64,000 nt of DNA from Clostridia bacterium (GCA_045533905.1 JAZSIR010000021.1:43283-107282); one strand, 5' to 3'. Shown: positions 9,100 to 54,286, numbered from the stretch's first letter. The notes: generated by a model not told the origin, from the sequence alone. A program made the numbers and translations.

Positions 9100-9103
9100 C
9101 TTT

Positions 9104-9157
9104 TTATTCTGTTTTCTCCGCTTCCGAGAATATATTCTCAATAATTCCCAAATCCCA
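9104..9157 (-). repeat. R0: possible degenerate fifth copy of the spoIVB tail, now forming the last ~14 codons of the 9104-10423 gene
   Basis: Hand alignment of 9110-9144 against R1 11290-11324 gives 29/35 identical positions, in frame. The encoded ...GIIENIFSEAEKTE* compares with the tail ...[16 protein letters not shown]. Confidence 0.3.
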
Positions 9158-10423: not shown

Positions 10424-10534
10424 ATCATCACCAATTTAATTTTACCAAATATAGAGAGAATAATCAATACTTGAATATTATCTTGACAAAACAATCATCA
10501 ATTGATTATAATAGTGATTAAATAATAGAAACGG

Positions 10535-11242: not shown

Positions 11243-11247
11243 TATAT

Positions 11248-11279
11248 AGGGCGTGCCTCACTATATTGAGGCACGCCCT
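11248..11279. terminator. bidirectional stem-loop between the DeoR gene stop and the stop codon of tail copy R1
   Basis: AGGGCGTGCCTCA-CTATAT-TGAGGCACGCCCT, followed by TTTT. Confidence 0.6.
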
Positions 11280-11280
11280 T

Positions 11281-11439
11281 TTACTTATTTGTTTTTCCCA
11301 CTTCCGAGAGCATATTTTCAATAAAAATCCCATACCCGCGCGTGGGGTCATTGACGAAAACGTGTGTTACAGCTCCAATGAGTTTGCCATTCTGAACGAT
11401 TGGGGAGCCGCTCATGACTGTTGTCAATGGGGGACAACA
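11281..11439 (-). repeat. R1: displaced copy of the spoIVB 3' end (11281-11415) plus the 7-7-7 inverted repeat (11419-11439)
   Basis: The minus strand reads [44 protein letters not shown] (stop at 11281-11283). The inverted repeat is TGTTGTC-AATGGGG-GACAACA. Confidence 0.85.
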
Positions 11440-11485
11440 AATTTTGAGGAATTTTCAAATCCAAGTTATGTTATATGTACTTTTA

Positions 11486-12694
11486 TCAATCAACTACACA
11501 ACCATTGGCATCCACCCATTTTTTACTGTCTACGTCAACACAAATCAACAACTTATTTAAATCAGTATCGAAAATCTGCTGTCCAAAAGACGGATAATAG
11601 CTGAGTCTTTCTGCAGTGCTGCAAACAGTTTTGTGGGTCATATTGATTGTGCGAAAGCCTTTACCTGAGCCATTTTCAAAAAGTTTAAAATTGGTTTCGT
11701 TTGTATGATTCCAGTCAGGCTGAAGTGTATATTCAATTCTTCCGCAAAAAGCTCCCGGGTGAATTTCACGCATAACATCCCCGAGTTTTCCTCCGGGGGT
11801 TTGGGTAGCCAAACGTTCGATGTTAAAGCTTATCATAGAAACTTCCTGACCGCCGATTAGAATATTACCATCACGGCCATGGTCACCACATTGATTAAAC
11901 AATGGTAAGTTCACATTTCTTTCGTCGCAACAGTTAATCATGGTGATAGGATGATTGTATCCACAATTAAAATCGTAGTTACCAAAAGTATAGCCATAAA
12001 CATTATGTGCTGCCGCACAATTTAACATAACAACATGTTCTCCGCCCACCTGAATTCCTTCATAGAAACCACCTGATGTAACATTGTCATAGCGAACAAT
12101 AAAGTTATTGCTACCATCGGTCATTGTAAGTCCGATGCAGCCTTCTTTTGCCATATCTGTTACACCCAAATATGTATTATCACGCTTTCCGCGAAGTCTG
12201 ACATTTTTCATCTGAACGCGGTCGCAACGACGCAAATCTATGCAGCGAACAGCTTTCTGATTATGCGCCAATGTCATAGTAATATTTTCGAGATTCAGAA
12301 CCGCTCCGCTATATAAACCTCTGTTTTTCCATTCGGTACGAAAAACAGAATATTCACCTTCTTCTATTTTAGAAAGTGCTTCCTCAGAAACATCAATCTG
12401 TACGCCCTCACGATTTTGTTCGAAGCTGAACGATTGTCCGATAATTGCAATTTCCTTATATAAAGCAGGTATCCTAATAGCTGCCATGGGTCCGCCATCT
12501 TCAAAATCATAAAAATCATCTACACAGTAAACACCGTTCAAAAGATAAACATTCTTTCCTTCTTCTGCGGCAGTCTTAATAGCTTTGTTTATCACAAGTT
12601 CATCATTTTTCCCTGAACAAACAAAATCAATGCCATCCTTTTCATTAAATTTTGAATTCGATGCAGCAACAGTTATAAAAGGTGAAAAACTCAT
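11486..12694 (-). CDS. right-handed parallel beta-helix (pectin-lyase fold) protein, probable glycan-degrading enzyme
   Basis: 402 aa. Repetitive beta-helix turns (NLENITM, RCDRVQMKNVRLRG, GLTMTDGSNNFIVRYDNV, VVMLNCAAAHN). No signal peptide. Confidence 0.5.
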   Translation of the reverse strand: MSFSPFITVAASNSKFNEKDGIDFVCSGKNDELVINKAIKTAAEEGKNVYLLNGVYCVDDFYDFEDGGPMAAIRIPALYKEIAIIGQSFSFEQNREGVQIDVSEEALSKIEEGEYSVFRTEWKNRGLYSGAVLNLENITMTLAHNQKAVRCIDLRRCDRVQMKNVRLRGKRDNTYLGVTDMAKEGCIGLTMTDGSNNFIVRYDNVTSGGFYEGIQVGGEHVVMLNCAAAHNVYGYTFGNYDFNCGYNHPITMINCCDERNVNLPLFNQCGDHGRDGNILIGGQEVSMISFNIERLATQTPGGKLGDVMREIHPGAFCGRIEYTLQPDWNHTNETNFKLFENGSGKGFRTINMTHKTVCSTAERLSYYPSFGQQIFDTDLNKLLICVDVDSKKWVDANGCVVD

Positions 12695-12733
12695 AAAATC
12701 TACTCCTTTTTAATTTTTATTCGGGTTAATACC

Positions 12734-13582
12734 TTAAATATTTAAAAATACTATGGATGCAAGTCCTGTTAAGAAACCTGCAAACTGTATTTTTGTCAGT
12801 TTTTCTTTATAAAATACTTTTGAAACAACATATGTAACAATAATTCCCCCTGCCGAAATCAGCGGAAACATAACGGATACAGCCATTGTTCCCGATAACA
12901 CCATAACAAGCAAATTAACAATACCATTCATAGCACCGGAAGCAACAGTAATAAACCGAGCATGATAAAAATTGCTTTTGAAATTATCTTTATTTGTTAC
13001 CAAAGTGGCTACTGCAAAAATCAAAAACACAATTGCGAGAGAAATTATCATAAATTCATTTTTGTATTCACCGTCGAATTTAATTTGTTGCATTTTCTGA
13101 ACGGTTGTACAAAGACCATTGCCGGCAAACGAAAGAAAAACAAATAAAAGCCATTTTGGTGTAATAGGACACTTGTCATTATTCTTGTTCACAAGGAAAA
13201 GCGAAATCGCAAGCAATCCAAGACCAATTATAAAATATATGCTTATTGGTTCCCTGAGAAAAGCAATTCCGTAAAAGGTTGGAATCATAAGTGAATATGA
13301 AATCATAAGTGACGAAAGTGACAAAGAACCATTTGCAATAGCAAGCATACCAGATAGTGAAGCGGTTGAAAATGATAAGGCAAAGGCTATCGAATATGGA
13401 ACAATCCCGGGATTCCAGCTAATATTCTTTGAAGTAACAAGAAAGAACATCATTGAAAAAAGCGCTGTAAGGGATAAAAAAAGATATGTACCATTTGTAC
13501 CTGTCTTTTCTGTATAGAATTTTTTAGCAATGCTCTGACCGGAAACGCCGGCTATTATAATTATCAAATATATAATGTTCAT
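12734..13582 (-). CDS. DMT/EamA-like 10-TM membrane transporter
   Basis: 282 aa. Entirely hydrophobic segments in a two-fold 5+5 pattern. Confidence 0.6.
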   Translation of the reverse strand: MNIIYLIIIIAGVSGQSIAKKFYTEKTGTNGTYLFLSLTALFSMMFFLVTSKNISWNPGIVPYSIAFALSFSTASLSGMLAIANGSLSLSSLMISYSLMIPTFYGIAFLREPISIYFIIGLGLLAISLFLVNKNNDKCPITPKWLLFVFLSFAGNGLCTTVQKMQQIKFDGEYKNEFMIISLAIVFLIFAVATLVTNKDNFKSNFYHARFITVASGAMNGIVNLLVMVLSGTMAVSVMFPLISAGGIIVTYVVSKVFYKEKLTKIQFAGFLTGLASIVFLNI

Positions 13583-13739
13583 ACGTTATGGCTCTATTTT
13601 CATCTGATACTACAAACAATCCCCATCAACTATATAAATTGTACCACTACATATTAATTTTTGTAAATAAATTATATTCTTTAAATATTGCAATATCTTC
13701 CCAACTATTATATAATATTGTTTAGAGGAGGCGTTAAAA

Positions 13740-14546
13740 ATGATTATAAAATACAATACAGAAAAGTTGCGACGTATTATAACCGATATAACCACCTTGA
13801 CTGGAATAAGCGTAGCCGTATTAGATACAGACTATAGCACCATAATAAGAGGACCACAGAGTAAAGAGTATTGCTCATTGCTGCAAACAATAGAAATTAA
13901 AAAAAAGCATTGCAAACAGTGTGATACAAGAATCTTAAACCGATGCCGTTCCTCTAAAAATTTGGAAAGTCACATATGCAGTGCGGGTCTTTATGATTCT
14001 GCAATGCCCATTATAAAAGACGATAACATCGTCGGATATGTCATAATGGGGCAGGTACGTTCTATGGACTCTCCTGCTCTGCCTAAATATTTACCTGATA
14101 CAGATCCTCAAACACTTAAAAAGTTAAATAAAATCTATGAACAAACTCCATTTATTTCAAAAAATCAATTGGAAGCACTGTATGATCTTCTGCCTCATAT
14201 TCTATTTGATAGTGCGATTGAGTTTGTGTACGATCCTGTTGCAATTGATATACTTAAGTTTATTGATGCAAATTTGCAAGCGGATTTAAGTATAAAACAG
14301 CTATGTGAAAGATTTTATATATCAAAAAACCGATTATATGAAGTTTTTCGGAACAATCTAGGATGCACCGTTACAGGATATATTAACGAACAACGCATCA
14401 AGCAAGCAAAAGAATTACTTAAACAATCAGACGATTCTATCTGTAATATTGCCGAAAAGGTAGGTATTTACAATTATACATATTTCTGTAAACTATTTAA
14501 AAAGCTCAGTGGAGTCACACCCACTGAATACAGAAAAAAGCCATAA
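13740..14546 (+). CDS. AraC-family regulator with an N-terminal PocR-type sensor domain
   Basis: 268 aa. PocR-like segment with a Cys-rich stretch (CSLLQ...HCKQCDTRILNRC...HICSAGLYDSAMPII...GYVIMGQV) and a C-terminal AraC HTH (GIYNYTYFCKLFKKLSGVTPTEYR). Confidence 0.8.
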   Translation: MIIKYNTEKLRRIITDITTLTGISVAVLDTDYSTIIRGPQSKEYCSLLQTIEIKKKHCKQCDTRILNRCRSSKNLESHICSAGLYDSAMPIIKDDNIVGYVIMGQVRSMDSPALPKYLPDTDPQTLKKLNKIYEQTPFISKNQLEALYDLLPHILFDSAIEFVYDPVAIDILKFIDANLQADLSIKQLCERFYISKNRLYEVFRNNLGCTVTGYINEQRIKQAKELLKQSDDSICNIAEKVGIYNYTYFCKLFKKLSGVTPTEYRKKP

Positions 14547-14561
14547 AAGGTTTACGTAAAA

Positions 14562-14590
14562 ATGCTCACTTATGAAATATAAGTGAGCAT
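14562..14590. terminator. stem-loop between the AraC stop and the R2 stop codon
   Basis: ATGCTCACTT-ATGAAATAT-AAGTGAGCAT, a 10-bp perfect stem. Confidence 0.5.
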
Positions 14591-14595
14591 TAATG

Positions 14596-14751
14596 TTATT
14601 TAATTTTCTCCGCTTCAGCCAGCATATTCTCTATAAATATCCCATATCCACGTGTCGGGTCATTTACAAAAACGTGTGTCACAGCTCCAATGAGTTTGCC
14701 ATTCTGAACGATTGGGGAGCCGCTCAAGACTGTTGTCAATAGGGGACAACA
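14596..14751 (-). repeat. R2: displaced copy of the spoIVB 3' end (14596-14724) plus the 7-7-7 inverted repeat (14731-14751)
   Basis: The minus strand reads [42 protein letters not shown]. The inverted repeat is TGTTGTC-AATAGGG-GACAACA. Confidence 0.85.
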
Positions 14752-14753
14752 AA

Positions 14754-16949
14754 TCAGATAAGTTTTTCTAACTCTGCCAGAATTCTATCGGCAATATTCT
14801 TCATCCCAATATCTCCGGGATGGTTTGCAACACCCTCGTGGCTAAATAATCCTATTGCTTTCATTTCATTAAGTTCACCCAGGTCTCCAAGTTCAATACA
14901 GGTCAAATTATTTTCTTTTGCATATTCTAAAATGATTTTATCACCGGGATGTTTCCAAAATCCTGTTGTTAATATAACTTTGGCCTTTAATGATTTGTTT
15001 AAATAGTCAAGCAGTTCTCCCAGTTCACGTTTGAATATTTCACAGTCAAATTCATTTTGCGGACAATTTTCAATAAAACGCATCACGATAATATCAGCAT
15101 CAAAGCTGCGGGCTTCTTCAAAGAGATAATGTTTGGTTGAGCCATTTTTATATTCCATTTCCCATTCCGCAACCTGACAGATGCAAAACGCCGCATCGGC
15201 TGATTTTTCCGAAACCGCAGACATCACACGATGAACATAGTCGTTTTCGGGACAGGAAGCCGCCATTCCGCATTCGTTGTACCAGCCTATCTGCGGGCGG
15301 AAGCCGTGGAGTGTCATCGAATTTCCCACAAACATCACTCGTTTACCTTTGCCATTCAAATTAAAAAATCGAATATGCCCACTATTATTGAGTTGATGAC
15401 CGGCACAAACCGTATTTTTCTGAAGTTGTTGGTATTCAGATGTTTTATAACAGATATTCTGCGTAAACTCTCCTGTAACGAATTGGTTCTCGTCAAAGTT
15501 TTTAAGAAGTTCTTGGTTCCAATACAAATTCTCAATCAATATATCTTTGGTTTGGTGGGTATCATCATAACCTTTGAAATATAGCGTTGGCTTTTGGCGA
15601 CCAAAGAGGTGAATGTTACTGAACAACATATTTCGATTGATGCCTCTGCGTGTGCCACCAGCAGAATACTCATGATGGAAACTGCTGACAATATGTATAA
15701 GATCAGGTGCATAATCTAAATTGGTGTTTTGATATGTTTCTGAATCTTTATTTTGAATAACACCTATTGGAATCACATCATCGTACTCTATATTTATATT
15801 TTTATACACCACATCATGCACATCGGCATAATCCACGTTGGAGCAGTCAAGTACATGACCGGTAACGTGTATGATGTTGCAGTTCTTAAAAACAATATTG
15901 CTTATTTCTTCCGCCCTTGTTTCTGCCCCGATTTCAAGACTTTTTCCCCAGTCGTTCCATATGGTGCAATTTTTTATAACTGTGTTCTTAAAAACATCGT
16001 AAGCTTTTCCTTTACGATACATTGCCTCTTTTACCGCTTTTTCAACATCATCTTCATGATAGCAATCAAAGCCTTTTACACAGATTGAATCATCAAAGGT
16101 TCGTAAAAAGCAATTATCTATAACAACATCTTCGCAATTGTGCATATCAATACCGTCTGAATTGTAACGCCAGCAACCAATAATTTTAACATTTGAAATA
16201 TGCATATTTTTGCAACCGATTGGTCTTATATTATAAACCAATGAATCGCGGATGGTGATGCCTTCAATTTTAATATTGTTACAATATTCAAGTTGAACTG
16301 TGTGCTCTCGTTTTGCATTATTGACTGCCGAAATATTATTTTCTGCATTATACTCAAAAAGTATTTTCTCAGTGTTTTTACTGTTGTCAAGAATACCTCT
16401 GCCCAAAATTTTTATGTTTTCGGAATCTATTGATTTTACACAGGCATAAACCACCGCACCTTCGTCAATAAACAATGTCTGATTGCTTTTTAATACAATT
16501 TCTCCGGCATAGTGTTCACCTTTGCCGAAATATATAACATTAGTATTGTTATAATCAATGTCATAGCAAGGTGTGGGATCAGAAAAAATATGAAGTGCAT
16601 TATTTCTGCCATACGGCTCAACGGTAAAATAAGCAGGCTTTTCAAGAGTAAATGTGATTTTTCCGTCTTTGATTTCCGGTGTTATACCCAATGACAACGG
16701 GCGTATAATAACTTCCTCAAAGGGATTTTGAGGAATTATTTCAAAAGACACCGATTCATCTGAAGAAAGTGAAAGGAAATTAACAAGTTCGGTTTGAGCT
16801 TTACTACGCTGATGCCCCGGCCAGCGACGGTTAAAAGGGAATGCAGACACACGGGCAGTATCAAGTGTTACCGGTTGTCCGTTCACTTTAACCTTATAAT
16901 TTTCTATGTGGTCTTTGGTTTGTGTTACAGGATAAATATTTATCGACAT
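14754..16949 (-). CDS. GH28-like beta-helix glycosidase fused to a C-terminal SGNH/GDSL-type esterase domain
   Basis: 731 aa. [32 protein letters not shown] resembles the GH28 NTDGID/DDC motifs. The C-terminus has [12 protein letters not shown] and [13 protein letters not shown] (SGNH blocks I and V). Confidence 0.65.
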
Positions 16950-17101
16950 ATCTTTGACTCCTTGTATTTTAGAATTACTATGACAATTATAATATTAAAG
17001 CAAGTAGAAAAATAGGTAATTTTTTAATATTAAAGGTATATATTTATTGACATTTTTGAGGATGCAATATATAATAGTCGTTATAAAAACCCCAAAGGAG
17101 T

Positions 17102-18004
17102 TTGATATGTGTGTATGTTTATAAAATCAAAATAAATTGTTTGCCAAAACTAATATGGGCTTGCGAAGTTACTGTTGAAAACTATGAATGGAGAAATCGC
17201 AATAGCAAAGATGTGTTGGAAATTTCGTATTCAAAATTTGACACAAAATCTGTTACCCTTAATAACAATAACTTTCTACTGAAAAACAACACTCTATCCT
17301 GCATAGTGGCTGATGAAAACCGTACAGCCTCCTGCAAATCGGGAAAGCCAATAACAATTGTATCAGTTGCTGTTAGTTTAAGTGATTTTAAATACCAACC
17401 ATGCGAACTTGTTGAAGCTGACTTGAGTGATGAAACAGTTCTTATATTGCCTTTTTATTTGGAAGAGTTGCCAATTAATTATGAACTTGAAATAATAAAG
17501 AAACTTCATGAAATCATTAAACTATCTTCCGCTGATTCGGAAAACAGAAAGATTGCTTTAGCATCTGCATTCTTTAACCTGATATGTGAGATTGATAAAA
17601 TAACACGAAATAATATCTGCAGCCAAAACAACAGCGTCAATTATTATGTAAAAAAAATTGATTACATTATCGAATCCAGATATAATGAGAAAATCACTCT
17701 CCAGTCAGTTGCATCAGAGTTGAATATATCACCGGTTTACCTGTCAACCATTTATAAAAGCATAACCGGTATAAATTTTTCGGAGCAACTTCTTATTGTG
17801 CGGATGAAACACGCAGAAAATTTATTGTTTGATCAAAATATTTCCACAACAAAGGTTGCAGAACTTTGCGGATTTTGCGATGAAAATTATTTCAGGAAAA
17901 GATTCAAACGTTTTTTTGGTATGAATGTAAGCGAGTGCAGAAAAATCAAAAACGGATTAACGCTCTACCACGAAAAACCTCAAAGAAAAAATGACAGCTG
18001 CTAA
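17102..18004 (+). CDS. AraC-family transcriptional regulator
   Basis: 300 aa; the start may be GTG 17111 after RBS AAAGGAG. C-terminal HTH: ISPVYLSTIYKSITGINFSEQL...CGFCDENYFRKRFKRFFGMNVSECR. Confidence 0.8.
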   Translation: MICVYVYKIKINCLPKLIWACEVTVENYEWRNRNSKDVLEISYSKFDTKSVTLNNNNFLLKNNTLSCIVADENRTASCKSGKPITIVSVAVSLSDFKYQPCELVEADLSDETVLILPFYLEELPINYELEIIKKLHEIIKLSSADSENRKIALASAFFNLICEIDKITRNNICSQNNSVNYYVKKIDYIIESRYNEKITLQSVASELNISPVYLSTIYKSITGINFSEQLLIVRMKHAENLLFDQNISTTKVAELCGFCDENYFRKRFKRFFGMNVSECRKIKNGLTLYHEKPQRKNDSC

Positions 18005-18020
18005 ATTTAGCGGCTGTCAT
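17991..18020. terminator. stem-loop overlapping the AraC stop, immediately before the R3 stop codon
   Basis: ATGACAGCTG-CTAAATTTAG-CGGCTGTCAT with one mismatch, followed by TTTT. Confidence 0.45.
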
Positions 18021-18026
18021 TTTAAA

Positions 18027-18203
18027 TTAAAAATTTTCTGAATTCTTTTCTTCAATGCTTCGTGCAGCCGCTAACATATTTTCAATAAATATCCCATAAC
18101 CTCTTGTTGGATCATTTACAAATACGTGTGTCACAGCTCCCACAATTCGGCCATTTTGCAGGATGGGTGAACCAGACACGAGTGTTGTCAATATGGGACA
18201 ACA
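18027..18203 (-). repeat. R3: displaced copy of the spoIVB 3' end (18027-18176) plus the 7-7-7 inverted repeat (18183-18203)
   Basis: The minus strand reads [49 protein letters not shown]. The inverted repeat is TGTTGTC-AATATGG-GACAACA. Confidence 0.8.
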
Positions 18204-18217
18204 ATTTTTTATATTTT

Positions 18218-19027
18218 TTATAATTTACGCATTTTTCCGGGTGTTATTTTATAAACATTTTTAAAAGTGTTCGACATATGAGACTGTGAATAGAATCCGC
18301 ATAGGTGTGAGATTTCGGAAATTGAAATATCCGTTGTGAGTAACATTTCTCGTACTCTTATCAATCTTTGTTTTGTAATATATTTATGTAGCGTTATCCC
18401 TTCGTTTTTTACAAAAACTTCATTAAGATAATATGGATGATAGTGCAATTTATCTGAGATTTCCTTTATATTTACAGATATGTTATTTTCAACGATTTCT
18501 TTAATTTTTTCACATAGAGGTACTTTGTGTTGATTGTTTTCTTTGTTTCTCGACAACTTTAACAAAATTATATTCAAATACAAATTTTCTATATCTTGTT
18601 TTTTTGTGCTTTTTTTACTTTCATTGTAAATGCTTTCTATATCGTTCCCTATTTCTTTTGCATTATTTACATATATTACATCAGAAAAAATATCTGGAAT
18701 TTCAGCATTATACCGAAATATAGTGTCATAATTAAACTCACCCGCTTTTTCCGGTACCATTACTCCTATATGCGAAAACTCTTGCGTAAAATCAAAGTTA
18801 ACTGTATAAAATATTATGGTTTCATTTGAATGAATATGATAGGGAAACCCTGAAGGATAATAAATTAGAGTATTTTTACAAAGAGGGTATGTTTTATTGT
18901 TACATTCAAAAACACCATTACCACTCAAAATATAAATCATACGGCAATCCCTCGCAATTACCATGTTATCTATAAAATATTTTGTTTTTGCAATATATCT
19001 TACAAAAGGCTCATAATACAAAGGCAT
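18218..19027 (-). CDS. AraC-family regulator (cupin sensor plus HTH)
   Basis: 269 aa. N-terminal cupin-like region ([17 protein letters not shown]) and C-terminal HTH ([25 protein letters not shown]). Confidence 0.8.
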
Positions 19028-19127
19028 ACAACCAACTCATTTCTTTGTTTTTTGATAAAATAACTTCGTTATATGCATTGATTATAACATAATTAAATAT
19101 TATAATCAAGAAAAATAATAAAAGAAG

Positions 19128-21431
19128 GTGCTTTTTGTGAAAAATCCATTAATTACAATGTCAGCCGTTACAGGAAGGCCATCATTGAGTTTTGTCCAAA
19201 ATTATATGAAATCTCTTAAGGAAAATGGTATTGAACAAGTTATGATTTACCCGAGGTCAGGATGTGAGCTTGAATATTTAAGCAACGACTGGTTTAAGAC
19301 GGTAGAATACTTTTTAAAGTGTGCAAAGCGGTTGGATATGAACATATGGTTATATGATGATTTTAATTGGCCGTCAGGGGATGCGGGCGGAATGGTTTCA
19401 AAAAAATATATGTTGAAATCAATTACAACAGTAGGGAAAAATATAGGTGAAATCAGTACATATTCAGAGCATAATGGTAAGATTTTCGGAATAAAATCTT
19501 TTCCCGATTTGCTGTCTTTTGATGCTGTTGATTACTTTATAAACATCACTCACGAGCAATATTATAGACATTTTAAAGAATATTTTGGAAACACAATAAA
19601 AGGTATTTTCACCGACGAGCCAAGCATTGGATATTGCTGCAACAATTCATCTGTGCCATATTATGAACAGCTCCCCGATGATTATAAAAGCTTGTGCGGA
19701 GATGACTTTTATGATGATATGGAGCTTGGCAGAGACAAGTTTTACGAAACCGTTATGCTTGCAGTGGCAAACAGGTTTAAAGCATGCTATGTTGATAAAA
19801 TACGCAATTGGTGCGAGGAACACTCAATAGATATGTGTGGTCATATGATATATGATCACGAGCCTTGCGCTGCAACCCGAAATAACGGCAATTTATTGAC
19901 AATGCTTTCGTCATTCTCTATTGCGGGAGTAGATGAAATTAACACCAATCTAAATGATTCCACTCTCCTTTCTCTTTTCGGTGCTGCCCAATATGCAAGA
20001 AAGGGTAATTATGCTATGGCAGAATTATTTGCATTAGGACCGTGTGATATGTCATATACATTAAGAAAAAGTATGATTTTTTATTCTGCCTGCTTCAAAA
20101 TAAACCTTTACTTTCTGGCAGTTTCTCATATGGATATGAGAGGAAATACCGCAATACTTGATTATTTTAATGATTTCTCAATTTCTCAGCCGGATTTTTC
20201 AGGAATGAAGCTTTTGGCACAAGAGGCACAGTTAGCGGCTGAATATGCAGATAAGGATTTTACACCCGATGTATATATTGAATATCCTTCAGAATTATGT
20301 GCCGGTAACTTGATGAATAAAAATTTTAATACCAATATTTTTATAGCTCTTTTAAAACGACTTACCTACTATCAGATACAGTGGAAATTTATCGATAAAG
20401 GTGATGATACAAACAATATTGAAGTAATCAGACTTACAAAGGATAATACCTTAAAATACGCACATATCACAACAACCGATATAGATGAAATATGCAAAGC
20501 CCTTGCACAAAAACCGCTTGTTATCAATATTAACGGTGAACTGTGTGAAAATATTTTTGTGCGAAAATTTGATGATGGCAGCTTTGTTGTAATTAATCTT
20601 GATGCCGCACCGTCAAAATATATTATAAACCGCATTGATAAAGAGATTGACGGTTTTGGTGTAGTAACTGACAAGGATGTAATTCCTACCGAGTATAAAA
20701 AAGTAAAAGCTGAAATTCATGATTTTAATGTAAATTACTGCAATAAAAATATTATTCGTTGTATGTATGTTAATTCACAAGATTCAGCAATCATTAAAAG
20801 CAACTCAAATCAAACAGTTGAATTTGTTTTGAGAAACGATGCAAAAGCATATATTGACAATGAAATCATTACTGCACAAAAATTTTGCACCGACATTCCG
20901 TTTGGAATGCAATGTCTTTACAAATCATCAGAATCCATAACACTTTGTAATGGCAGCTTTGTTGTAACATCAAGCAGCGATTATAAATATATGCCAAGTG
21001 TTCTTATAAAGGGCGACTTTGACGCAGAAAGTATAAGCGGAGATGTTTGTCAAATCAATCTTTCTCCACGAAAAAACACACTTTGTATCGGTGATTATAT
21101 AAGCAGTTTTGGGAAAATTGAACTTTCTCAAAAAGTGTTTGTTCCGAAGGAAGCAAAATTTTTAGAGTTAAAAGGAACAACGCTTTATACCTGTGTATCA
21201 ATAAACGAAAAACCGGTAGGCGAGAGAATATGCTCTCCGTATATTTATAAAATTGACAGTAAATATTGCGATAGATTTGTGGATTTAAAAATAGTACAAT
21301 ATTCAAGCATTGCACCTATTTTTGGTGATGTGGAATATTGGGACAAGCATTCCAAAAATGTGTCGTGGAAAGGCATTAAATCACCACAAAAAACCAATTT
21401 CGGAGTAGCAGGAGCAGAGTGGTTGGTATGA
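19128..21431 (+). CDS. large uncharacterised protein, probable glycoside hydrolase (family not assignable by eye)
   Basis: 767 aa, no signal peptide. The N-terminal segment NIWLYDDFNWPSGDAGG resembles motifs I associate with sugar hydrolases. Divergent from an AraC gene. The start is uncertain (GTG 19128, GTG 19137 or ATG 19158). Confidence 0.35.
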   Translation: MLFVKNPLITMSAVTGRPSLSFVQNYMKSLKENGIEQVMIYPRSGCELEYLSNDWFKTVEYFLKCAKRLDMNIWLYDDFNWPSGDAGGMVSKKYMLKSITTVGKNIGEISTYSEHNGKIFGIKSFPDLLSFDAVDYFINITHEQYYRHFKEYFGNTIKGIFTDEPSIGYCCNNSSVPYYEQLPDDYKSLCGDDFYDDMELGRDKFYETVMLAVANRFKACYVDKIRNWCEEHSIDMCGHMIYDHEPCAATRNNGNLLTMLSSFSIAGVDEINTNLNDSTLLSLFGAAQYARKGNYAMAELFALGPCDMSYTLRKSMIFYSACFKINLYFLAVSHMDMRGNTAILDYFNDFSISQPDFSGMKLLAQEAQLAAEYADKDFTPDVYIEYPSELCAGNLMNKNFNTNIFIALLKRLTYYQIQWKFIDKGDDTNNIEVIRLTKDNTLKYAHITTTDIDEICKALAQKPLVININGELCENIFVRKFDDGSFVVINLDAAPSKYIINRIDKEIDGFGVVTDKDVIPTEYKKVKAEIHDFNVNYCNKNIIRCMYVNSQDSAIIKSNSNQTVEFVLRNDAKAYIDNEIITAQKFCTDIPFGMQCLYKSSESITLCNGSFVVTSSSDYKYMPSVLIKGDFDAESISGDVCQINLSPRKNTLCIGDYISSFGKIELSQKVFVPKEAKFLELKGTTLYTCVSINEKPVGERICSPYIYKIDSKYCDRFVDLKIVQYSSIAPIFGDVEYWDKHSKNVSWKGIKSPQKTNFGVAGAEWLV

Positions 21432-21934
21432 ATATTTTTGCATGGACAAGTGGTATTCTCGGAATAACTGCAAATGTGATAATCTATCAGCAAGAAAGCG
21501 GTAAACGAGTTTTGATATACAAGCTTATTTCTGATTTTATATGGGTTTTTCACTATTATACACTTAACGCATATTCGGGGATGGCGGTAGCAATGGTAGG
21601 TATTTTAAGAGAAATTGTTTTCTTAACCCAACAAAAAACGGAAATATCAAAAATCTGGCTGATAATTTTCATGGGCGTTGCGATGGTATGTGCATCCTTC
21701 ACATGGAAAGGTGTAATAAGCTTTCTGCCCGCCACAGCTTCTGTTTTGTCGGTTATAAGCTTTTGGAAAGCAAATCCGGTATTTACAAGAATAATTGCCT
21801 ATCCTATTTCTATTTGTATGTTAACATACGATATTGTATATAAATCATATACAGGAATTACTAACGAAGTATTAACTTTTATTTCATCTACAATAGGTAT
21901 AATACGAATGCGTAAAAAGGTAAATTTAATATAA
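21419..21934 (+). CDS. YgjV-family small inner-membrane protein
   Basis: 171 aa with ~5 TM segments. Overlaps the preceding gene by 13 nt. Similar in architecture to the backbone gene at 43494-44024. Confidence 0.5.
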   Translation: MVGMNIFAWTSGILGITANVIIYQQESGKRVLIYKLISDFIWVFHYYTLNAYSGMAVAMVGILREIVFLTQQKTEISKIWLIIFMGVAMVCASFTWKGVISFLPATASVLSVISFWKANPVFTRIIAYPISICMLTYDIVYKSYTGITNEVLTFISSTIGIIRMRKKVNLI

Positions 21935-22039
21935 AGGGGTAATAACAATGAGCGAATTAAGAATGGGTGTAATTAATTAGGAAAGAACTTTAATACGCTA
22001 TTGATGCCGGGATTATGAAAAAAATGGCCTAACAGATTT

Positions 22040-22276
22040 TCCTGAAGATACCGGTATCAGGGTTATACAAAGACAGAGTGTATCCCCGGTCCAACAAATC
22101 AGGAGTTAAAAGATGGTGCTGATATGTTTTGCAGATGGATGGAAGAAAATATAAGCTATATGAAAAGGATGCATATCCTGACATTTGCATGGAATGAATT
22201 CGAAGAAGGAGCATGGCTGTGCCCCACATGTATTGATGACTCAAGTATAGACGATAGCCGTATTAAAGCATTTTAA
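22040..22276 (+). pseudogene. frame-disrupted C-terminal remnant of a GH99-like/WbsX-family gene
   Basis: Hand translation gives ...DGADMFCRWMEENISYMKRMHILTFAWNEFEEGAWLCPTCIDDSSIDDSRIKAF*. The AWNEFEEGAW segment resembles the WNEW.EG motif. Upstream frames are broken by stops. Confidence 0.3.
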
Positions 22277-22340
22277 AATATTGTAAAAATGTGGAAGTCA
22301 AAGCTTGGGTAAGCTTTTATATAAATATTAATATGTGATA

Positions 22341-22373
22341 AATATGCTCGCCTTTAATAAAGACGAGCATATT
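22341..22373. terminator. stem-loop immediately before the R4 stop codon
   Basis: AATATGCTCG-(13 nt)-CGAGCATATT, a 10-bp stem. Confidence 0.4.
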
Positions 22374-22374
22374 A

Positions 22375-22530
22375 CTATTTAATCTTCTCAGCTTCGGAGA
22401 GCATATTCTCAATAAATATCCCATACCCACGGGTTGGGTCATTTATAAAAACATGAGTTACTGCACCAACTAACTTGCCATTTTGCAGGATGGGTGAACC
22501 CGACACGACTGTTGTCAATAGGGGACAACA
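22375..22530 (-). repeat. R4: displaced copy of the spoIVB 3' end (22375-22503) plus the 7-7-7 inverted repeat (22510-22530)
   Basis: The minus strand reads [42 protein letters not shown] (TAG stop). The inverted repeat is TGTTGTC-AATAGGG-GACAACA, and the activase gene ends inside it. Confidence 0.85.
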
Positions 22531-23396
22531 TTTTTCACACCGATGGCTTTGATTTTTTCTGCAACCAATGCAATTTCATCCTTTGTAGGTAATGGAACCA
22601 TTGACAAAGGATAACCAAGCTCCATACACTCATATTTTCTTTCCGCATAGTTGTGATAAGGCAGTATCCGCAGTACTTTTACGGATTTTAAATCTTTAAC
22701 AAAGGCTGCAATTTTCTCCGCTTCACCGTCATTCATTGTTGGTATGTATGGATATCTTATTTCTATAGGGATACGCAGAGAATCGATATATTTTATGTTT
22801 TCAAGTATCTGTTTATTTGATACTCCTGTGCATTTTGTGTGAATATCCTCATTGATAGCCTTTATATCAAAGAGAAATGTGTCGGTATAGGGGATGATTT
22901 TATCAAAAGCCACTCTGTTTACAAATCCGCTGGTGTCCACGGCAATATTTATATCGTGTTCTTTCAGAAGCTTTGCAATTTCTACGCAAAAGTCCGCCTG
23001 CATAAGCGGTTCACCACCGGAAAAGGTTACACCTCCGCCACTGCCTTTCATAAATATTTCGTCTTTAAGAACTTCTTTTGCTATTTCCTCTGCAGAAGAT
23101 GTTTTACCTGAAATTTCGAATGCATTATTGGGACAGATATCTTCACATTTCCCGCATAACGTACATTTTTCTTTGATAAACATATGCTTTTCGTCTTTGA
23201 TTACATTTGCCTCACATATTTTGGTGCATCGCATACAATTACCGCAAGCAGTTTTGTCAAAAAGTATTTCTTTTTCAAAGGAAAATGATTCCGGATTGTG
23301 ACACCATTTACATCGGAGGGGACACCCCTTGAAAAATACAGTTGTTCTTATGCCATCGCCGTCGTGAATTTCAAAAGGCTTTATAGCAAAAATCAT
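22515..23396 (-). CDS. glycyl-radical enzyme activating protein (radical SAM)
   Basis: 293 aa. [12 protein letters not shown] (CxxxCxxC) plus two ferredoxin-type clusters, [11 protein letters not shown] and [16 protein letters not shown] motif present. Confidence 0.9.
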
Positions 23397-25594
23397 TAGC
23401 CCGACACCTCACATTGCTTTATAAACATATCTTGTTTTACTTTGCTGAGCTTTACAAAATATTCATTCCAGCCACATACCCTTACCTGAAGAGTTGAATA
23501 TTTTTCAGGATATTTCTGAGCTTCAATCAAAGTCTCTCTTTTTACTATATTTCCCTGCATTGCAAATCCGCCATTATCGAGGAAGATTTTGATAAGAGAA
23601 ATAAAGTCCTCAAGACCTTTTTCGCCTTCAACGGCAGAAGGATGTAATATAAAATCAAACGGTACTCCGTCTACAAAAGATGCTGAGTCAATTTTCAATA
23701 CAGATTGCATATATGCGGTAATACCGCCCCTGTCCATTCCGTCGGATGCACACAGATTTTTGGAAATCGGTTTTTTTGCATTTCTTCCGTCAGATGTAGC
23801 AGATGTTTTTTCTCCGTGTTTTATACAATGATATACCGAATCAAGTCCAAGACGCACCTTGCCGCCTCTTTCGAGATTCTTGTTGCAATAACGATTGGCA
23901 AGATTTTCTAAAATGTCGGTCATTATCTTATCGGGAATGGTCATATTATTTCCATACTTTTCTTTGTCGTTGATAATTCTCTTTTGCAAATCTTCAAACC
24001 CTTTCCAGTCTGACAAAAGAGCTCTTCTCATATCGTCAAGTGAAATTTCCTTAAGGTCAAATACATATTTTTTTATTGCAACAAGAGAATCCACCGTAGT
24101 TGCAAGACCGTGATGCTTTAAAGATAAATTATTATACTTCAAAGGATATTCGTGCACATCCATACCTTTTTCAATACATTCTGAAAAACTACTCGAATAT
24201 ATAGGCGAAGGATTAATAAGTGTACTGTATTCTCCTTGCTTTTCAATGAAATCCAACGCAAAGTCGGTGCAGTAATTCAGTTGTTTTAAGTAGATGTCAA
24301 AAAACTCCTCAAAACTTTTAATATCTGTTTTACTTTCATATCCAACCTGAGAATCTGTCATAATATCTCTACCGCCATTTATAGCAAATTCAACACATTT
24401 TACCGTATTAAAACGAAGTGCCGAAATTTCACCTTCTTCCAATCCCATAATAATAGGCTCATAACAACCAAGTATAACATAGTTCTGTGAATCTTCTTTA
24501 GGTATGCCGATTTTTTCGTATGCATCAAATACCGCTTCGTCATTAATAAGACATATACTGCTGTGTCCGCCTCTTATCATTAAAGCGGCTTTTCTTATGA
24601 TTTTTTCGTCTATGTTTTTATGACATCTTATGTGAATTTTGGGGTCATAAATGCCCATTTCATCATATACGTTTAAAATAAGATGACTGAGCTCATTAGT
24701 GTAATCATTTCCGTCCTTGTCAGAACCGCACATGGTAAATGGTTGTTCAGCAAATCTTTTTGCCGCTGTGAAATGAATGAAATAATACCTGAAGAGCTCT
24801 TTAATTTCTTCTTCTGTTTTTCCTGTTGCCTTGTCTTTTTCAAAATATGGAAAATACATTCTGTCAATGGGCCCGAGTGTTCTGGCTTTTTCGACTCCGA
24901 TTTCCTCAAAATAAAGATAGAGTATGGAAAATTGCATTACCTCATACAAATTTTCGGGTGGCTTTGTCATAAGATTTTTTATGCACCTTGAAAACTCCGG
25001 CACATTGAATTTAAGTGAATATGTGTATATTCTGTCAAGAAGTCTTAAAATTGCATTATAGCATATTAATACAGAGTCAAGAAAAACAATTTGTTTATCC
25101 AGATAGTTTCCGCTTGCTATAAGCTTTTCTTTTGAATTTTTAACGTTTTTAATAATTCCTGCAAAACCATTTTCCAATAGATATGACCAGTTGGGAACAG
25201 TATGAATAAAATCAACCATCATCCAATCAAGACCAACATCTGCAAATTTTTTAAATTTTTCATATTCTTCAGGGAGCTTTTTTTTGCGAATTTTTTCTGT
25301 TTGCGAATAAAAAGCTTTACAAAAAACAGTATCTGTAGCAAAATAAGAATAGTCAATTCCAAGGTTTAGTTTTACCGAAAATGGTGTATGCTCATTGATT
25401 TCCAGTTGCAGATTATCCAAAAGATACGAATATGCATTTGCGCACACAATTTCCCTGGGTAATTCTGTTTCGTAATTTTGAAATTCCTGTAGCTTTGATA
25501 ATAAGATTTTGGGTGAAAGTCCTGTGGATTCATCCCAGATTGCTTGTTCAAATCCATTTTGTATGAAGTCTCTGTTTTCTTTGAATTTTTGCAT
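23396..25594 (-). CDS. glycyl-radical enzyme (PFL-fold), unknown substrate
   Basis: 732 aa. C-terminal glycyl-radical fingerprint TLQVRVCGWNEYFVKL and a mid-protein LGCYEPII Cys loop. Overlaps the activase start by 1 nt. Confidence 0.85.
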   Translation of the reverse strand: MQKFKENRDFIQNGFEQAIWDESTGLSPKILLSKLQEFQNYETELPREIVCANAYSYLLDNLQLEINEHTPFSVKLNLGIDYSYFATDTVFCKAFYSQTEKIRKKKLPEEYEKFKKFADVGLDWMMVDFIHTVPNWSYLLENGFAGIIKNVKNSKEKLIASGNYLDKQIVFLDSVLICYNAILRLLDRIYTYSLKFNVPEFSRCIKNLMTKPPENLYEVMQFSILYLYFEEIGVEKARTLGPIDRMYFPYFEKDKATGKTEEEIKELFRYYFIHFTAAKRFAEQPFTMCGSDKDGNDYTNELSHLILNVYDEMGIYDPKIHIRCHKNIDEKIIRKAALMIRGGHSSICLINDEAVFDAYEKIGIPKEDSQNYVILGCYEPIIMGLEEGEISALRFNTVKCVEFAINGGRDIMTDSQVGYESKTDIKSFEEFFDIYLKQLNYCTDFALDFIEKQGEYSTLINPSPIYSSSFSECIEKGMDVHEYPLKYNNLSLKHHGLATTVDSLVAIKKYVFDLKEISLDDMRRALLSDWKGFEDLQKRIINDKEKYGNNMTIPDKIMTDILENLANRYCNKNLERGGKVRLGLDSVYHCIKHGEKTSATSDGRNAKKPISKNLCASDGMDRGGITAYMQSVLKIDSASFVDGVPFDFILHPSAVEGEKGLEDFISLIKIFLDNGGFAMQGNIVKRETLIEAQKYPEKYSTLQVRVCGWNEYFVKLSKVKQDMFIKQCEVSG

Positions 25595-25728
25595 AATTTA
25601 ATCACCTCTTGCAATGTATTATACCTTTGCTTTAACGCGAAGTAAATGCATTATAGAGTCAAATAGATGTAAAAATCCGTCATTGACATTTATGGATATT
25701 TATTGTATAGTTTAATTGGTGATGATTT

Positions 25729-26499
25729 ATGAATGATATATGTATCAAAGAAATAGTCAATGTTTACCACAGGAATAAAATCATGTGGAGAAGAAATTCT
25801 TTTGCTCCACGTGCTTTCGATGCTGTTGTTTTATTTACACACGGAGAAATAGAATATAAATTTTCTGACAAAACCTTTGTTGCAAAAAAAGGTGATTTTC
25901 TATTGTTGCCGTGCGATATTGCATATTCAGGAAAAATGCATACTGATAATGCTTCTTATTATGTAGTAGACTTTAGGTGTTTATGTGCTGACGAATTTAA
26001 AAATTATATAGCACCGGGTGTTTTTAAAACAGAAAATTTTGGTTTGTTTGTTTCTAAATTTGAAAATGCAGTGAAATCATGGGATGTTCACACACTCAAT
26101 GCAAATCTCAAAATCAAATCATTACTTTATTCTGTGCTTGCAGAATTCCAAAAACAGAAAGAAATGAATTTTAAAACAACAAGTATTTATGATATTATAG
26201 AATACATATCTGATCATATTGGTGATTCAAATCTTAATGTAACAGAGTTATGCAGACTGTTTCATATATCGGATTCTCAACTCAGAAGAAATATTTTAAA
26301 AAATACCGGCTTATCTCCAAACGAATATATATTTACAATAAGAGTGAACAAAGCAAAAAACGAACTCTCGTACACCGATAAACCGATTCAAATGATTTCT
26401 TACGAATGCGGCTTTTCATCACCATATTATTTCTCAAGATGTTTTTCCAAAAGTACAGGAATGTCCCCCTCAAAATACAGAACACTCACCCGTACATGA
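25729..26499 (+). CDS. AraC-family regulator (cupin plus HTH)
   Basis: 256 aa. C-terminal HTH CGFSSPYYFSRCFSKSTGMSPSKYR. Divergent from the GRE operon. Confidence 0.85.
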   Translation: MNDICIKEIVNVYHRNKIMWRRNSFAPRAFDAVVLFTHGEIEYKFSDKTFVAKKGDFLLLPCDIAYSGKMHTDNASYYVVDFRCLCADEFKNYIAPGVFKTENFGLFVSKFENAVKSWDVHTLNANLKIKSLLYSVLAEFQKQKEMNFKTTSIYDIIEYISDHIGDSNLNVTELCRLFHISDSQLRRNILKNTGLSPNEYIFTIRVNKAKNELSYTDKPIQMISYECGFSSPYYFSRCFSKSTGMSPSKYRTLTRT

Positions 26500-26511
26500 G
26501 CAGGTGAGTGT
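26482..26511. terminator. stem-loop overlapping the AraC stop, 12 nt from the spoIVB stop codon (serves both convergent genes)
   Basis: ACACTCACC-(12 nt)-GGTGAGTGT, followed by TTT. Confidence 0.5.
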
Positions 26512-26522
26512 TTTCGATTCTG

Positions 26523-27722
26523 TTATTTAATTTTCTCCACTTCCGCTAGCATGTTTTCAATAAATATCCCATAACCTCTTGTTGGATCATTCACAAAAAC
26601 GTGAGTTATTGCACCAACGAGTTTGCCGTTTTGGATTATAGGCGAACCCGACATACCTTGCACGATGCCGCCGGTGAGCCGCAAAAGGCGCTCGTCCGTG
26701 ATTTTCAGGACCATACTTTTTCCGTTTCCGCTGCGGCGCGAAAGTTTTTCGATTTCGACGGTGTACGCCTTTTTCTCGCCGTCAATACTGCTGAAGATGA
26801 CGGCATCGCCTTTTTGTACCTGTGTGCTCGCAGCAATGGGGACGGAGATGCCGTCCTTTCCCATTTCGCTTTTGCCGAAGAGGCCGACGGCCTCATTTTT
26901 CAAAATGGTGCCCACATCCGCTCCGAACACGCCGCGCACCGCGCCGGGAACGCCGTTCTCCCCTTTATCGATCTGTACGATTTCGCACGCGGTGATGCTG
27001 CCGTGCGCAGGCGGCACGGCTTCTTCGGTATCGGGGTCGAGAATCGCGTGGCCGAGGGCCGCGTAGGTGCCGTCCTCGGGAATGTAGAAGGTGACGGTGC
27101 CGATACCGGCTGTGCTCTCGCGCACCCAAAGGCCGAGCTTGTAGGCGCCGCCATCGGCGTACCAGACGGGTGTGATTTCCGCATCCCACTGCTTTTCCCT
27201 GCGGCAGACCGTGAGCGTCATCGCTTTGCCGCCGCTTTTTACAACGGCCTCCTCGAGCATATCGCTCCCCGAAAGGCGTGCGCCGTTCACGGCCACGATT
27301 CTGTCGCCCGCACGGATGCCGGCTTCCTTCCCCGGGGCGCGGCCTGTTTGGGGAATTTCGGAAAGGCCGATGACGAGAACACCGTCCATATACAGCTTAA
27401 TGCCGACTGCCTCGCCCCCTAACGTGACGTTTCTGCCCTCCACCACGCTTACGGCGGCCGTCCGCCGCCAAAGGCCGAAGGCGGAAAGGTCCATCGTATA
27501 CGCGCCGGCCTTTTCGGGCGTTACCAGAAAGCGGTTGTCTTCTTTTGTAAAATGAAAATCGCCTTCGGAAGCGATGGGCGCAACGAAGGCGGGCAGGGCG
27601 TGCTTTTCCCCGCGGAGCATCACAAACTCCGAAGGCAGAAGCGTGCCGTAAAAATAACAAAAAATCAAGGAAACAGAAAGCGCGCCGACAGCGAGACGGC
27701 GCGCGTATTTTTGCCTCTTCAT
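26523..27722 (-). CDS. spoIVB: SpoIVB sporulation signalling serine peptidase (S55), PDZ domain plus peptidase domain
   Basis: 399 aa. N-terminal TM segment, PDZ (GIRAGDRIVAVNG), and active-site region [42 protein letters not shown]. Confidence 0.9.
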   Translation of the reverse strand: MKRQKYARRLAVGALSVSLIFCYFYGTLLPSEFVMLRGEKHALPAFVAPIASEGDFHFTKEDNRFLVTPEKAGAYTMDLSAFGLWRRTAAVSVVEGRNVTLGGEAVGIKLYMDGVLVIGLSEIPQTGRAPGKEAGIRAGDRIVAVNGARLSGSDMLEEAVVKSGGKAMTLTVCRREKQWDAEITPVWYADGGAYKLGLWVRESTAGIGTVTFYIPEDGTYAALGHAILDPDTEEAVPPAHGSITACEIVQIDKGENGVPGAVRGVFGADVGTILKNEAVGLFGKSEMGKDGISVPIAASTQVQKGDAVIFSSIDGEKKAYTVEIEKLSRRSGNGKSMVLKITDERLLRLTGGIVQGMSGSPIIQNGKLVGAITHVFVNDPTRGYGIFIENMLAEVEKIK

Positions 27723-54280: not shown

Positions 54281-54286
54281 AAAATT

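Follow-up and report, generated by a model that had tools for sequence, protein, structure and literature searches.

In the 64-kb stretch of a Clostridia bacterium genome analysed here (GCA_045533905.1, JAZSIR010000021.1:43283-107282; hereafter, the window), the gene for the sporulation protease SpoIVB is followed by AT-rich modules that are separated from one another by displaced copies of the spoIVB 3' end. We consider it likely that five non-autonomous cassettes make up this region (9104-26654) as a composite array, and that they possess the attachment site of elements encoding large serine recombinases (LSRs), were mobilized in trans, and were stacked by accretion.

Displaced copies of the spoIVB 3' end

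A repeat search of the 64-kb window identified a family of direct repeats with five members (at 11292, 14604, 18056, 22383, and 26531). In a MAFFT alignment and in tblastn comparisons, four displaced copies (R1 to R4; hereafter, tails) and the end of the complete, live gene (aligned at 26523-26651) are mutually homologous, and the displaced tails correspond to the final 132 nt of the open reading frame (ORF) 26523-27722 on the minus strand, that is, spoIVB. Each of R1, R2, R3, and R4, as well as the live end, retains the reading frame and a stop codon. The initial annotation of this sequence had recognized the four displaced spoIVB ends, and the three analyses bear this out; its hand translations of the tails match ours, including frame and stop codon in every copy, and its coordinates hold for R2, R3, and R4, with R1 ending at 11412 instead of 11415.

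The tails are accompanied by a palindrome, TGTTGTC-N7-GACAACA, which is present in four copies in the window (H1 to H4) against none expected by chance in the motif scan. In the sense of the gene, each palindrome of the window lies 6 nt upstream of one displaced tail, and the live spoIVB end lacks a palindrome; H1-H4 and R1-R4 are all intact. This combination of repeat and palindrome is real and statistically secure. The modules between the tails have a GC content of 33-41% compared to 50-51% in the flanks, as the initial annotation had held in describing the blocks as AT-rich.

The array extends beyond position 11281, where the initial annotation had placed its start. The final ~55 nt of the ORF for an iron-containing alcohol dehydrogenase (Fe-ADH; 9104-10423, minus strand) form a sixth, truncated copy of the tail (R0; repeat family D2), which is 77% identical to the R4 unit over 57 nt (tblastn, E 6e-6) and is followed by a terminator of its own. 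Therefore the array consists of five modules, M0 to M4, spanning 9104-26654, and starts at ~9104. Terminator-like stem-loops directly follow R0, R1, R2, and the live end; on the plus strand, the palindromes H3 and H4 themselves score as terminator-like. The first ~75 nt of R1 and R2 are nearly identical, which indicates probable gene conversion. A search against Rfam produced no match inside the array, and the sole tRNA of the window is located at 60395-60469.

A chimeric live gene and selection on the tails

The spoIVB ORF is complete, with all S55 and PDZ domains present in the 399 amino acids (aa); Pfam upholds the identification of the target as a sporulation protease gene in the initial annotation. 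The gene is a chimera. Its first 1068 nt have a GC content of 0.60 and a GC content at third codon positions (GC3) of 0.71, whereas the last 132 nt have a GC content of 0.38 and GC3 of 0.34, and the switch falls exactly at the repeat boundary. The working end of spoIVB, catalytic serine included, therefore arrived with foreign, AT-rich DNA. The first residue of the tail is the serine of the motif GMSGSP, which we take to be the catalytic Ser378. When the protein is aligned with the SpoIVB structure (PDB 9lnf), the tail starts at the same residue and the alignment reaches the C-terminus; the crystallized protein reads GMAGAP at this position.

Selection on the tails was assessed with the Nei-Gojobori method over their first 35 codons, using only the pairs with an estimable synonymous rate. 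The ratios of nonsynonymous to synonymous substitutions (dN/dS) are 0-0.07, with synonymous sites near saturation; the tail copies therefore diverged while coding, under purifying selection. The initial annotation had supposed that each copy was once selected as a working gene end and had proposed a formal alignment and a dN/dS analysis as a check; the results agree with its supposition, with respect to both homology and purifying selection.

The palindrome-tail junction in other genomes

In line with another suggestion of the initial annotation, Clostridia genomes and metagenomes were searched for the palindrome combined with a spoIVB tail. A scan of one genome per species with the pattern TGTTGTCCCNNATTGACAACA retrieved 62 loci (denoted L with a number), where only a handful of chance matches would be expected in the collection given the 19 fixed bases of the pattern. 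An in-frame spoIVB end follows the palindrome, in the same register, in 60 of the 62. The hosts belong to many Clostridia species, represented by metagenome-assembled genomes (MAGs) of animal and human gut origin, among them members of the Oscillospiraceae, Lachnospiraceae, and Acutalibacteraceae. Metagenomes contributed another 19 loci, and 15 of these have tails. At ~25 loci, the live spoIVB is followed by at least one module and then by the palindrome and a displaced tail, and all non-live tails in the fetched loci carry the palindrome, intact or decayed. Conservation of the palindrome in the alignment of junctions is partly forced by the search pattern; however, decayed palindromes were found independently, via tblastn, and the palindrome is therefore a genuine companion of the tails. 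Across the 67 aligned junctions, variation in the tails is concentrated at third codon positions, a pattern that indicates selection acting at the protein level. Of the 35 complete modules (1.3-5.6 kb in size) visible in other genomes, none (0/35) contains an LSR.

The junction belongs to a widespread and seemingly undescribed family of mobile elements of gut Clostridia. Full-text literature searches pairing spoIVB with integrase and attB, serine recombinase, or integrated element returned nothing relevant. Exact-protein look-ups of the SpoIVB, the glycyl-radical enzyme, and the GH28-like protein of the window found no record; the closest SpoIVB is 71% identical to that of the window. A phage origin was considered and found to be unsupported: the palindrome is absent from IMG/VR, and no viral relatives of the LSRs described below were found.

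Several peculiarities were observed at individual loci. Many MAG and metagenome contigs (L067-L071, L012, L015, L023, L028, and others) end in, or just after, the spoIVB tail or the palindrome, which suggests that the repeated junctions, or strain variation at these sites, systematically break short-read assemblies at spoIVB. In L066-L071 (spoIVB P0018, 59% identical to the window protein; for example, L066:11078-11246), all from a related species, the gene is interrupted within the tail, after ...GAVTHVCVN, by a sequence with repeated GATACCTACA motifs, and six independent metagenome contigs end no more than ~100 nt from the point of interruption; this may be a different, gene-splitting element or an assembly-breaking repeat. 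At the end of the first module of L063 (16169-16392), the palindrome is degenerate (TATTGCCACTTATTGACAACA) and precedes a truncated tail, behind which an ORF starts (MSRLARTISESGVYHILFRG...) that by eye seems to encode the N-terminus of an IS200-type transposase; the insertion seems incidental. A single-strand mechanism of the HUH/IS200 type was dropped as a candidate given that this is a single, incidental insertion and that no such gene recurs at other loci.

Movement of modules between genomes

Module M1 of the window has a close counterpart in L037, with 94.6% identity over 3451 nt and 98-100% identity in most 50-nt windows of the cargo. In L037, this module is the first one, adjoining the live spoIVB, whereas in the window it is the fourth from the gene, and the N-terminal part of the host SpoIVB of L037 is only 38% identical to that of the window. 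M1 has thus moved between species as a discrete unit. The flanking tails of the two M1 copies are only 70-86% identical. In eight more pairs of loci, 0.96-2.6 kb of DNA up to the palindrome is 91-97% identical, and the tails differ. In such same-cargo copies, identity runs through the palindrome and is lost within a few nucleotides after it.

Linkage within the junction locates the boundary more closely. The first 4 nt of the spacer, together with the palindrome, are identical in 7 of the 16 pairs with the same cargo and different tails, compared to a background of 17%, whereas none of the 7 pairs with the same tail and different cargo share these 4 nt. These counts point to the palindrome plus 4 nt (25 nt in total) travelling with the upstream cargo rather than with the downstream tail; by analogy, this right end is about as long as a serine-integrase attP half-site. 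The exchange point appears to lie in the interval from spacer position 4 to the Ser codon. Within this interval, the TG preceding the Ser codon is invariant, being part of NTG in displaced junctions and of ATG in live genes. In a by-eye comparison of the arms around the candidate crossover, no convincing inverted symmetry that would define attB and attP half-sites was seen.

The tails themselves are mosaic, as expected if the repeated units of ~180 nt exchange sequence by homologous recombination and gene conversion; such exchange is clearly also at work and explains why tails do not stay with their cargo. In L037 (~4995-5060), 26 nt at the end of the cargo, the left arm of the palindrome included, are duplicated in tandem compared to the window (11419-11480); the first copy, ending TTGTTGTACA, resembles a collapsed palindrome, and the duplication may be a scar of aberrant recombination.

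Relatives that encode large serine recombinases

No recombinase family matched any ORF of the modules in the Pfam and other family scans, in keeping with the description of the modules as recombinase-less in the initial annotation. Nor is there a recombinase among the matches listed for the other ORFs of the window (25 of 63 families in one scan), the listed Pfam matches likewise containing no tyrosine recombinase, and tblastn of the window with LSRs from other loci gave no match.

At loci with long cargo, the picture is different: an LSR ORF ends 27-70 nt upstream of the palindrome and tail. This arrangement was found in L072/L091, L084, L080, L093, and L094, with proteins 50-57% identical to the LSR of L072 that combine Resolvase, Recombinase, and Zn_ribbon_recom domains (in some cases, with DUF4368) and contain the motif Y-x-R-L-S-x-E-D rather than Y-x-R-V-S-T. 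The family comprises 630 proteins at E<1e-60, and an LSR adjoins about one in ten palindromes with visible upstream DNA. In L091 (6633-11608), L093 (6612-11602), and L094 (6660-11608), a DUF6870 gene precedes three successive LSR genes, the ORFs of which overlap slightly. In the conserved block, helix-turn-helix (HTH) genes, sigma-like genes, and DUF6870 are found together with the three tandem LSR genes; the palindrome, the 6-nt spacer, and the spoIVB tail come next. Further upstream in L091 and L093 are sigma70_r4/HTH_16-type genes, a ParM-like gene (ALP_N), and a gene for a RecD2-like helicase. The cassettes of the window therefore have their attachment site in common with autonomous, LSR-bearing elements but lack the enzyme.

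A model of cassette insertion and the alternatives

We propose that the cassettes are probably moved in trans by an LSR. In the sense of the gene, a cassette consists of a spoIVB end of 43-49 codons, a terminator-like stem-loop, cargo with its own regulator and promoter, and the ~25-nt right end, that is, the palindrome TGTTGTC-N7-GACAACA plus 4 nt. In a circular form, the right end would be joined to the start of the tail (palindrome, 4 nt, TG, tail), producing an attP-like site, which an LSR supplied in trans would recombine with the spoIVB sequence encoding ...GGIVQGM|SGSPI..., with the exchange occurring at or beside the invariant TG that precedes the Ser codon. The incoming tail and terminator would become the working end of the gene, and the old tail would be displaced behind the palindrome of the new cassette. 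Serial stacking would be possible because the resident and the incoming tails must both encode SGSPI(I/L)QNG, so that the new tail leaves an occupied gene junction that is reusable as a target. A displaced junction would resemble attP, and recombinase-driven loss of one or several proximal cassettes could ensue; later, RecA-type recombination and gene conversion among the ~180-nt units would turn the tails into mosaics. Under this model, M0 would be the oldest, distal module and M4 the newest, adjoining the gene. This order fits the truncation of M0 and its composition, the closest to that of the host (GC 0.41), as well as the position of M1, proximal in L037 and distal here. The core of the initial annotation, serial integration at the 3' end with replacement of the gene end and with recombinase-less units that depend on movement in trans, is supported by the chimeric spoIVB, purifying selection on the tails, the 60 of 62 loci with the same junction, the M1 copy in L037, and the LSR-bearing relatives.

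Several observations weigh against this model. There is no LSR anywhere in the 64-kb window. An internal perfect palindrome is atypical of serine-integrase attP arms. The model assumes reuse of the gene junction and a lack of directionality, and Ccr-type and TnpX-type LSRs are less directional; canonical serine integrases, however, work in one direction only and do not accept attL in place of attB (PMC3783163). The left end of the LSR-bearing elements lies more than 10 kb from the LSRs, and the junction between the spoIVB 5' part and their own tail was not captured. Among the metagenome matches to the palindrome, there is no circular contig, and no circular junction or empty site was seen. The loop and spacer differ in 9 of the 16 same-cargo pairs, which is unexpected for a clean 2-nt crossover. 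On the left side, the breakpoints are scattered, with identity starting +12, +24, ~+107, and ~+130 nt into the tail. Finally, the contrast between the M1 cargo and its flanking tails shows that tails are not inherited together with cargo. Homologous recombination therefore contributes substantially, and in principle its part could be larger than we credit it with.

An explanation by homologous recombination only would have RecA produce circles between tails that re-enter at any spoIVB tail through a single crossover, or modules spread by transformation, with the palindrome serving as a weak terminator or insulator. It readily accommodates the scattered left breakpoints, the divergent tails around the nearly identical M1 cargo, the near-identity of R1 and R2 at their start, and the terminator-like scores of H3 and H4 on the plus strand. 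We nevertheless regard it as unlikely, because at 60 of 62 loci, across many species, the palindrome is conserved as a sequence, beyond the mere stem, and lies exactly 6 nt from the Ser codon, and because the same site adjoins LSR genes in several lineages. Moreover, a crossover within a tail would keep the palindrome, the spacer, and the first part of the tail together, whereas identity of same-cargo copies collapses a few nucleotides past the palindrome, and repeats of ~130 nt that are only 75-90% identical would serve RecA poorly as substrates across species. Less probable still is an integron-like system in which the crossover would occur within the 7-7-7 palindrome, either as a tyrosine-type core or as a folded single-strand site, with the recombinase encoded elsewhere and cassettes swapping from palindrome to palindrome within arrays, independently of the live gene. 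The 7-bp arms and 7-nt spacer do resemble a tyrosine-recombinase core, several same-cargo pairs diverge from loop positions 3-4 or from the first nucleotide after the palindrome, and the loop variants CT, CC, AT, and TT behave like an exchangeable centre. However, the live junction has no palindrome and yet has a foreign tail, so that a crossover at the coding sequence is needed, and the spacer shows no linkage at all with the tail that follows (0/7), which places the exchange 3' of the palindrome. A crossover inside the palindrome, be it a tyrosine core or the centre of an LSR site, was rejected on these grounds: it cannot yield the in-frame live junction, and the linkage puts the exchange 3' of the spacer. 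Furthermore, LSRs are the only recombinases that adjoin the site; no tyrosine recombinase is present among the called genes of L063-L071 and L091-L095, nor was one found in the first 62 loci with a motif regular expression, which also missed serine recombinases. The system has no intI, attI, or cassette promoter (Pc), and its cassettes are not promoterless.

It is also conceivable, but very improbable, that the array is an immobile fossil in which complete LSR elements, integrated on five independent occasions, have been reduced to inert relics by internal deletions. In its favour, LSR-bearing elements exist, the truncated R0 has become part of a cargo-gene ORF, and decayed palindromes and truncated tails occur at other loci. 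However, M1 contains no LSR remnant and is mostly 98-100% identical in its cargo between two distantly related hosts, where it occupies different array positions; LSR remnants are likewise missing from all 35 complete small modules, and all four palindromes and R1-R4 are intact in the window. Five independent deletions of like style in one array are unlikely.

A bolder form of this model, in which spoIVB of gut Clostridia would be a general 'cassette chromosome' with unlimited stacking, last-in-first-out removal, a possibly bidirectional, trans-acting set of three LSRs, and a new, palindromic type of attP arm, is tentative, and we consider it rather doubtful. If it were true, the spoIVB platform would be a system of cassette capture that parallels integrons in function but relies on serine recombinases and has a protein-coding gene as its target.

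Cargo and surroundings of the array

The features of the array are listed in Table 1. Perfect or near-perfect matches to sigma-70-type promoters precede the regulators of M0, M2, and M4. Positions 22515-22530, within the palindrome H4, encode the last five codons and the stop codon of the glycyl-radical activase (...N V V P Y *), and the 3' end of this cargo gene therefore overlaps the presumed recombination site. YgjV-family genes occur twice in the window, in M3 (21419-21934) and in the host backbone (43494-44024). Upstream of spoIVB are genes for a MatE transporter and a GyrB-like (ParE/GyrB-type) topoisomerase subunit, and the remaining genes of the window are housekeeping ones (glycogen and histidine genes, tRNA synthetases, FtsK). 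Just past the histidine operon, GC content dips to 0.43 (54001-55000), in a segment with a 182-aa ORF (54322-54870, minus strand) that has no Pfam match.

Table 1. Features of the spoIVB array, in the direction of spoIVB transcription (window coordinates)
Feature	Coordinates	Strand	Evidence
Live spoIVB, 399 aa, PDZ and peptidase S55; host-type first 1068 nt, foreign last 132 nt	26523-27722	-	Pfam, GC/GC3, PDB 9lnf
Live tail, 43 codons from Ser of GMSGSP plus stop; AT-rich, presumably delivered by M4	26523-26654	-	Alignment, composition, dN/dS, PDB 9lnf
Terminator-like stem-loop right after the live-tail stop	26481-26512	-	Terminator scan
M4 cargo, GC 0.34	22531-26522	.	Pfam, NCBIfam
M4 AraC regulator	25729-26499	+	Pfam
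M4 near-consensus promoter match	25683-25711		Promoter scan
M4 glycyl-radical enzyme	23396-25594	-	Pfam, NCBIfam
M4 glycyl-radical activase	22515-23396	-	Pfam, NCBIfam
Palindrome H4, right end of M4; activase stop codon inside	22510-22530	.	Alignment, motif scan
Displaced tail R4; preceded by the 6-nt spacer 22504-22509	22375-22503	-	Repeats, alignment, dN/dS, tblastn
M3 cargo, GC 0.33	18204-22374	.	Family scan
M3 YgjV-like membrane protein	21419-21934	+	Family scan
M3 767-aa protein without family match	19128-21431	+	Family scan including NCBIfam
M3 AraC regulator	18218-19027	-	Family scan
Palindrome H3; same sequence as the palindrome that adjoins the LSR genes of L091 and L093	18183-18203	.	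Motif scan
Displaced tail R3, with longer C-terminal extension	18027-18176	-	Repeats, alignment, dN/dS
M2 cargo, GC 0.35	14752-18026	.	Family scan, NCBIfam
M2 AraC regulator	17102-18004	+	Family scan
M2 consensus promoter match	17047-17075		Promoter scan
M2 GH28-like 731-aa enzyme	14754-16949	-	Family scan
Palindrome H2	14731-14751	.	Motif scan
Displaced tail R2; terminator 14561-14591 next	14596-14724	-	Repeats, alignment, dN/dS, terminator scan
M1 cargo, GC 0.35	11440-14595	.	Family scan, comparison with L037
M1 PocR/AraC regulator	13740-14546	+	Family scan
M1 EamA transporter	12734-13582	-	Family scan
M1 402-aa protein without family match	11486-12694	-	Family scan
Palindrome H1	11419-11439	.	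Motif scan
Displaced tail R1; terminator 11248-11279 next	11281-11412	-	Alignment, dN/dS, terminator scan
M0 cargo, GC 0.41; most distal and presumably oldest	9160-11280	.	Family scan, composition
M0 DeoR regulator	10535-11242	+	Family scan
M0 glycerol-1-phosphate-dehydrogenase-like Fe-ADH	9104-10423	-	Family scan, NCBIfam
R0, final ~18 codons and stop, in-frame fusion with the Fe-ADH ORF; palindrome lost; terminator 9080-9102 next	9104-9159	-	Repeats, tblastn, terminator scan

Implications

The spoIVB cassette family is widespread, seemingly undescribed, and mechanistically testable. If our interpretation is correct, it constitutes a widespread, unrecognized route for the exchange of metabolic modules among gut and rumen Clostridia, such as those for glycyl-radical enzymes, transporters, and hydrolases of the pectin type, ready for use because each is accompanied by a regulator. 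An insertion site in spoIVB would be missed by island finders that rely on tRNA targets and adjacent integrases, and the repeated junctions may break metagenome assemblies at this gene. Mobile DNA routinely encodes the catalytic serine and the C-terminus of a protease that is essential to sporulation signalling. The triple-LSR elements and the compact, ~50-bp site could yield tools for site-specific recombination and reusable targets for serial stacking.

Comparison with known systems

The initial annotation likened the array to integron cassettes and could match it to no described system. With integron arrays it indeed has in common an order of small cargo units devoid of a recombinase and a conserved, repeated junction with an inverted repeat. 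However, the defining features of integrons are missing: no IntI tyrosine recombinase, attI, or Pc was seen in the scans of the window, the junction is a ~180-nt combination of palindrome, gene end, and terminator rather than attC, and the cassettes are 2-4 kb in size, with 2-3 genes and their own regulators and promoters, as opposed to promoterless single ORFs. The second statement was too strong, given that composite staphylococcal islands and the accretion of cis-mobilizable elements (CIMEs) are close functional analogues. Unlike islands that target tRNA or tmRNA genes, the spoIVB array contains neither a tRNA or tmRNA nor an integrase.

Sporulation intervening elements (skin/sigK, SPbeta/spsM, gin/gerE, yin/yabG; PMC4191935, PMC5595907, PMC10747680) similarly combine LSR-type recombinases with sporulation-gene targets in Firmicutes. 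However, elements of the skin, SPbeta, and gin type split their gene and excise in the mother cell to restore it, whereas spoIVB stays whole, with no developmental excision required, and the units of the window lack a recombinase or directionality factor. CIME accretion at the 3' end of fda (ICESt1/ICESt3; PMC5704250) is closer, in that non-autonomous, att-bounded units devoid of recombination genes lie in tandem with, or are left by, autonomous elements for which the 3' end of a protein-coding gene is the target and is rebuilt. The difference is that tyrosine integrases and conjugative elements operate there, whereas LSRs are associated with the spoIVB site, and that spoIVB arrays reach at least five units without a nearby autonomous partner. 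The ssrA islands of Dehalococcoides reportedly each possess their own recombinase, whereas the modules of the window have none. These islands, too, integrate serially and site-specifically at the 3' end of a single-copy gene, are separated by direct repeats of that end, and carry niche-specific catabolic cargo; they target the tmRNA gene, however, and their repeats measure ~20 bp (PMC3146451).

With regard to LSR integrative elements in general, the modules of the window encode no LSR, whereas related elements with the same junction do; the target is constant, namely, the Ser region of spoIVB at 60 of 62 loci, and mosaicism of the tails blurs the crossover dinucleotide. The closest functional analogues of the array, by comparison of organization, are the composite islands built of staphylococcal cassette chromosome (SCC) elements and ccr-less pseudo-SCC elements, a family to which the spoIVB array does not belong. 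In SCC and SCCmec (PMC3900703, PMC9430635, bioRxiv 10.1101/336396), as at spoIVB, the LSR genes lie in tandem (CcrA/CcrB there, three LSRs in the relatives at the spoIVB site); the 3' part of a conserved gene is targeted with the frame kept; direct target repeats bound each unit, as they do in the window; and tandem accretion leads to composite islands in which many recombinase-less units with adaptive cargo are thought to be moved in trans. The differences are nevertheless substantial. The target is rlmH/orfX there and spoIVB of gut Clostridia here; instead of a 15-20-bp repeat, the spoIVB cassettes have a putative crossover ~130 nt before the stop codon and deliver a replacement end of 43-49 codons that contains the catalytic serine, together with a terminator; the conserved, perfect 21-nt palindrome at the end of the element is a feature of the spoIVB cassettes; the LSRs at the spoIVB site are not Ccr orthologues (51 bits with the CcrB model, the cutoff being 900); and resistance genes are replaced by sets of a regulator and catabolic enzymes. 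The array is best filed as an LSR-type 'cassette chromosome' at spoIVB that is built of non-autonomous cassettes.

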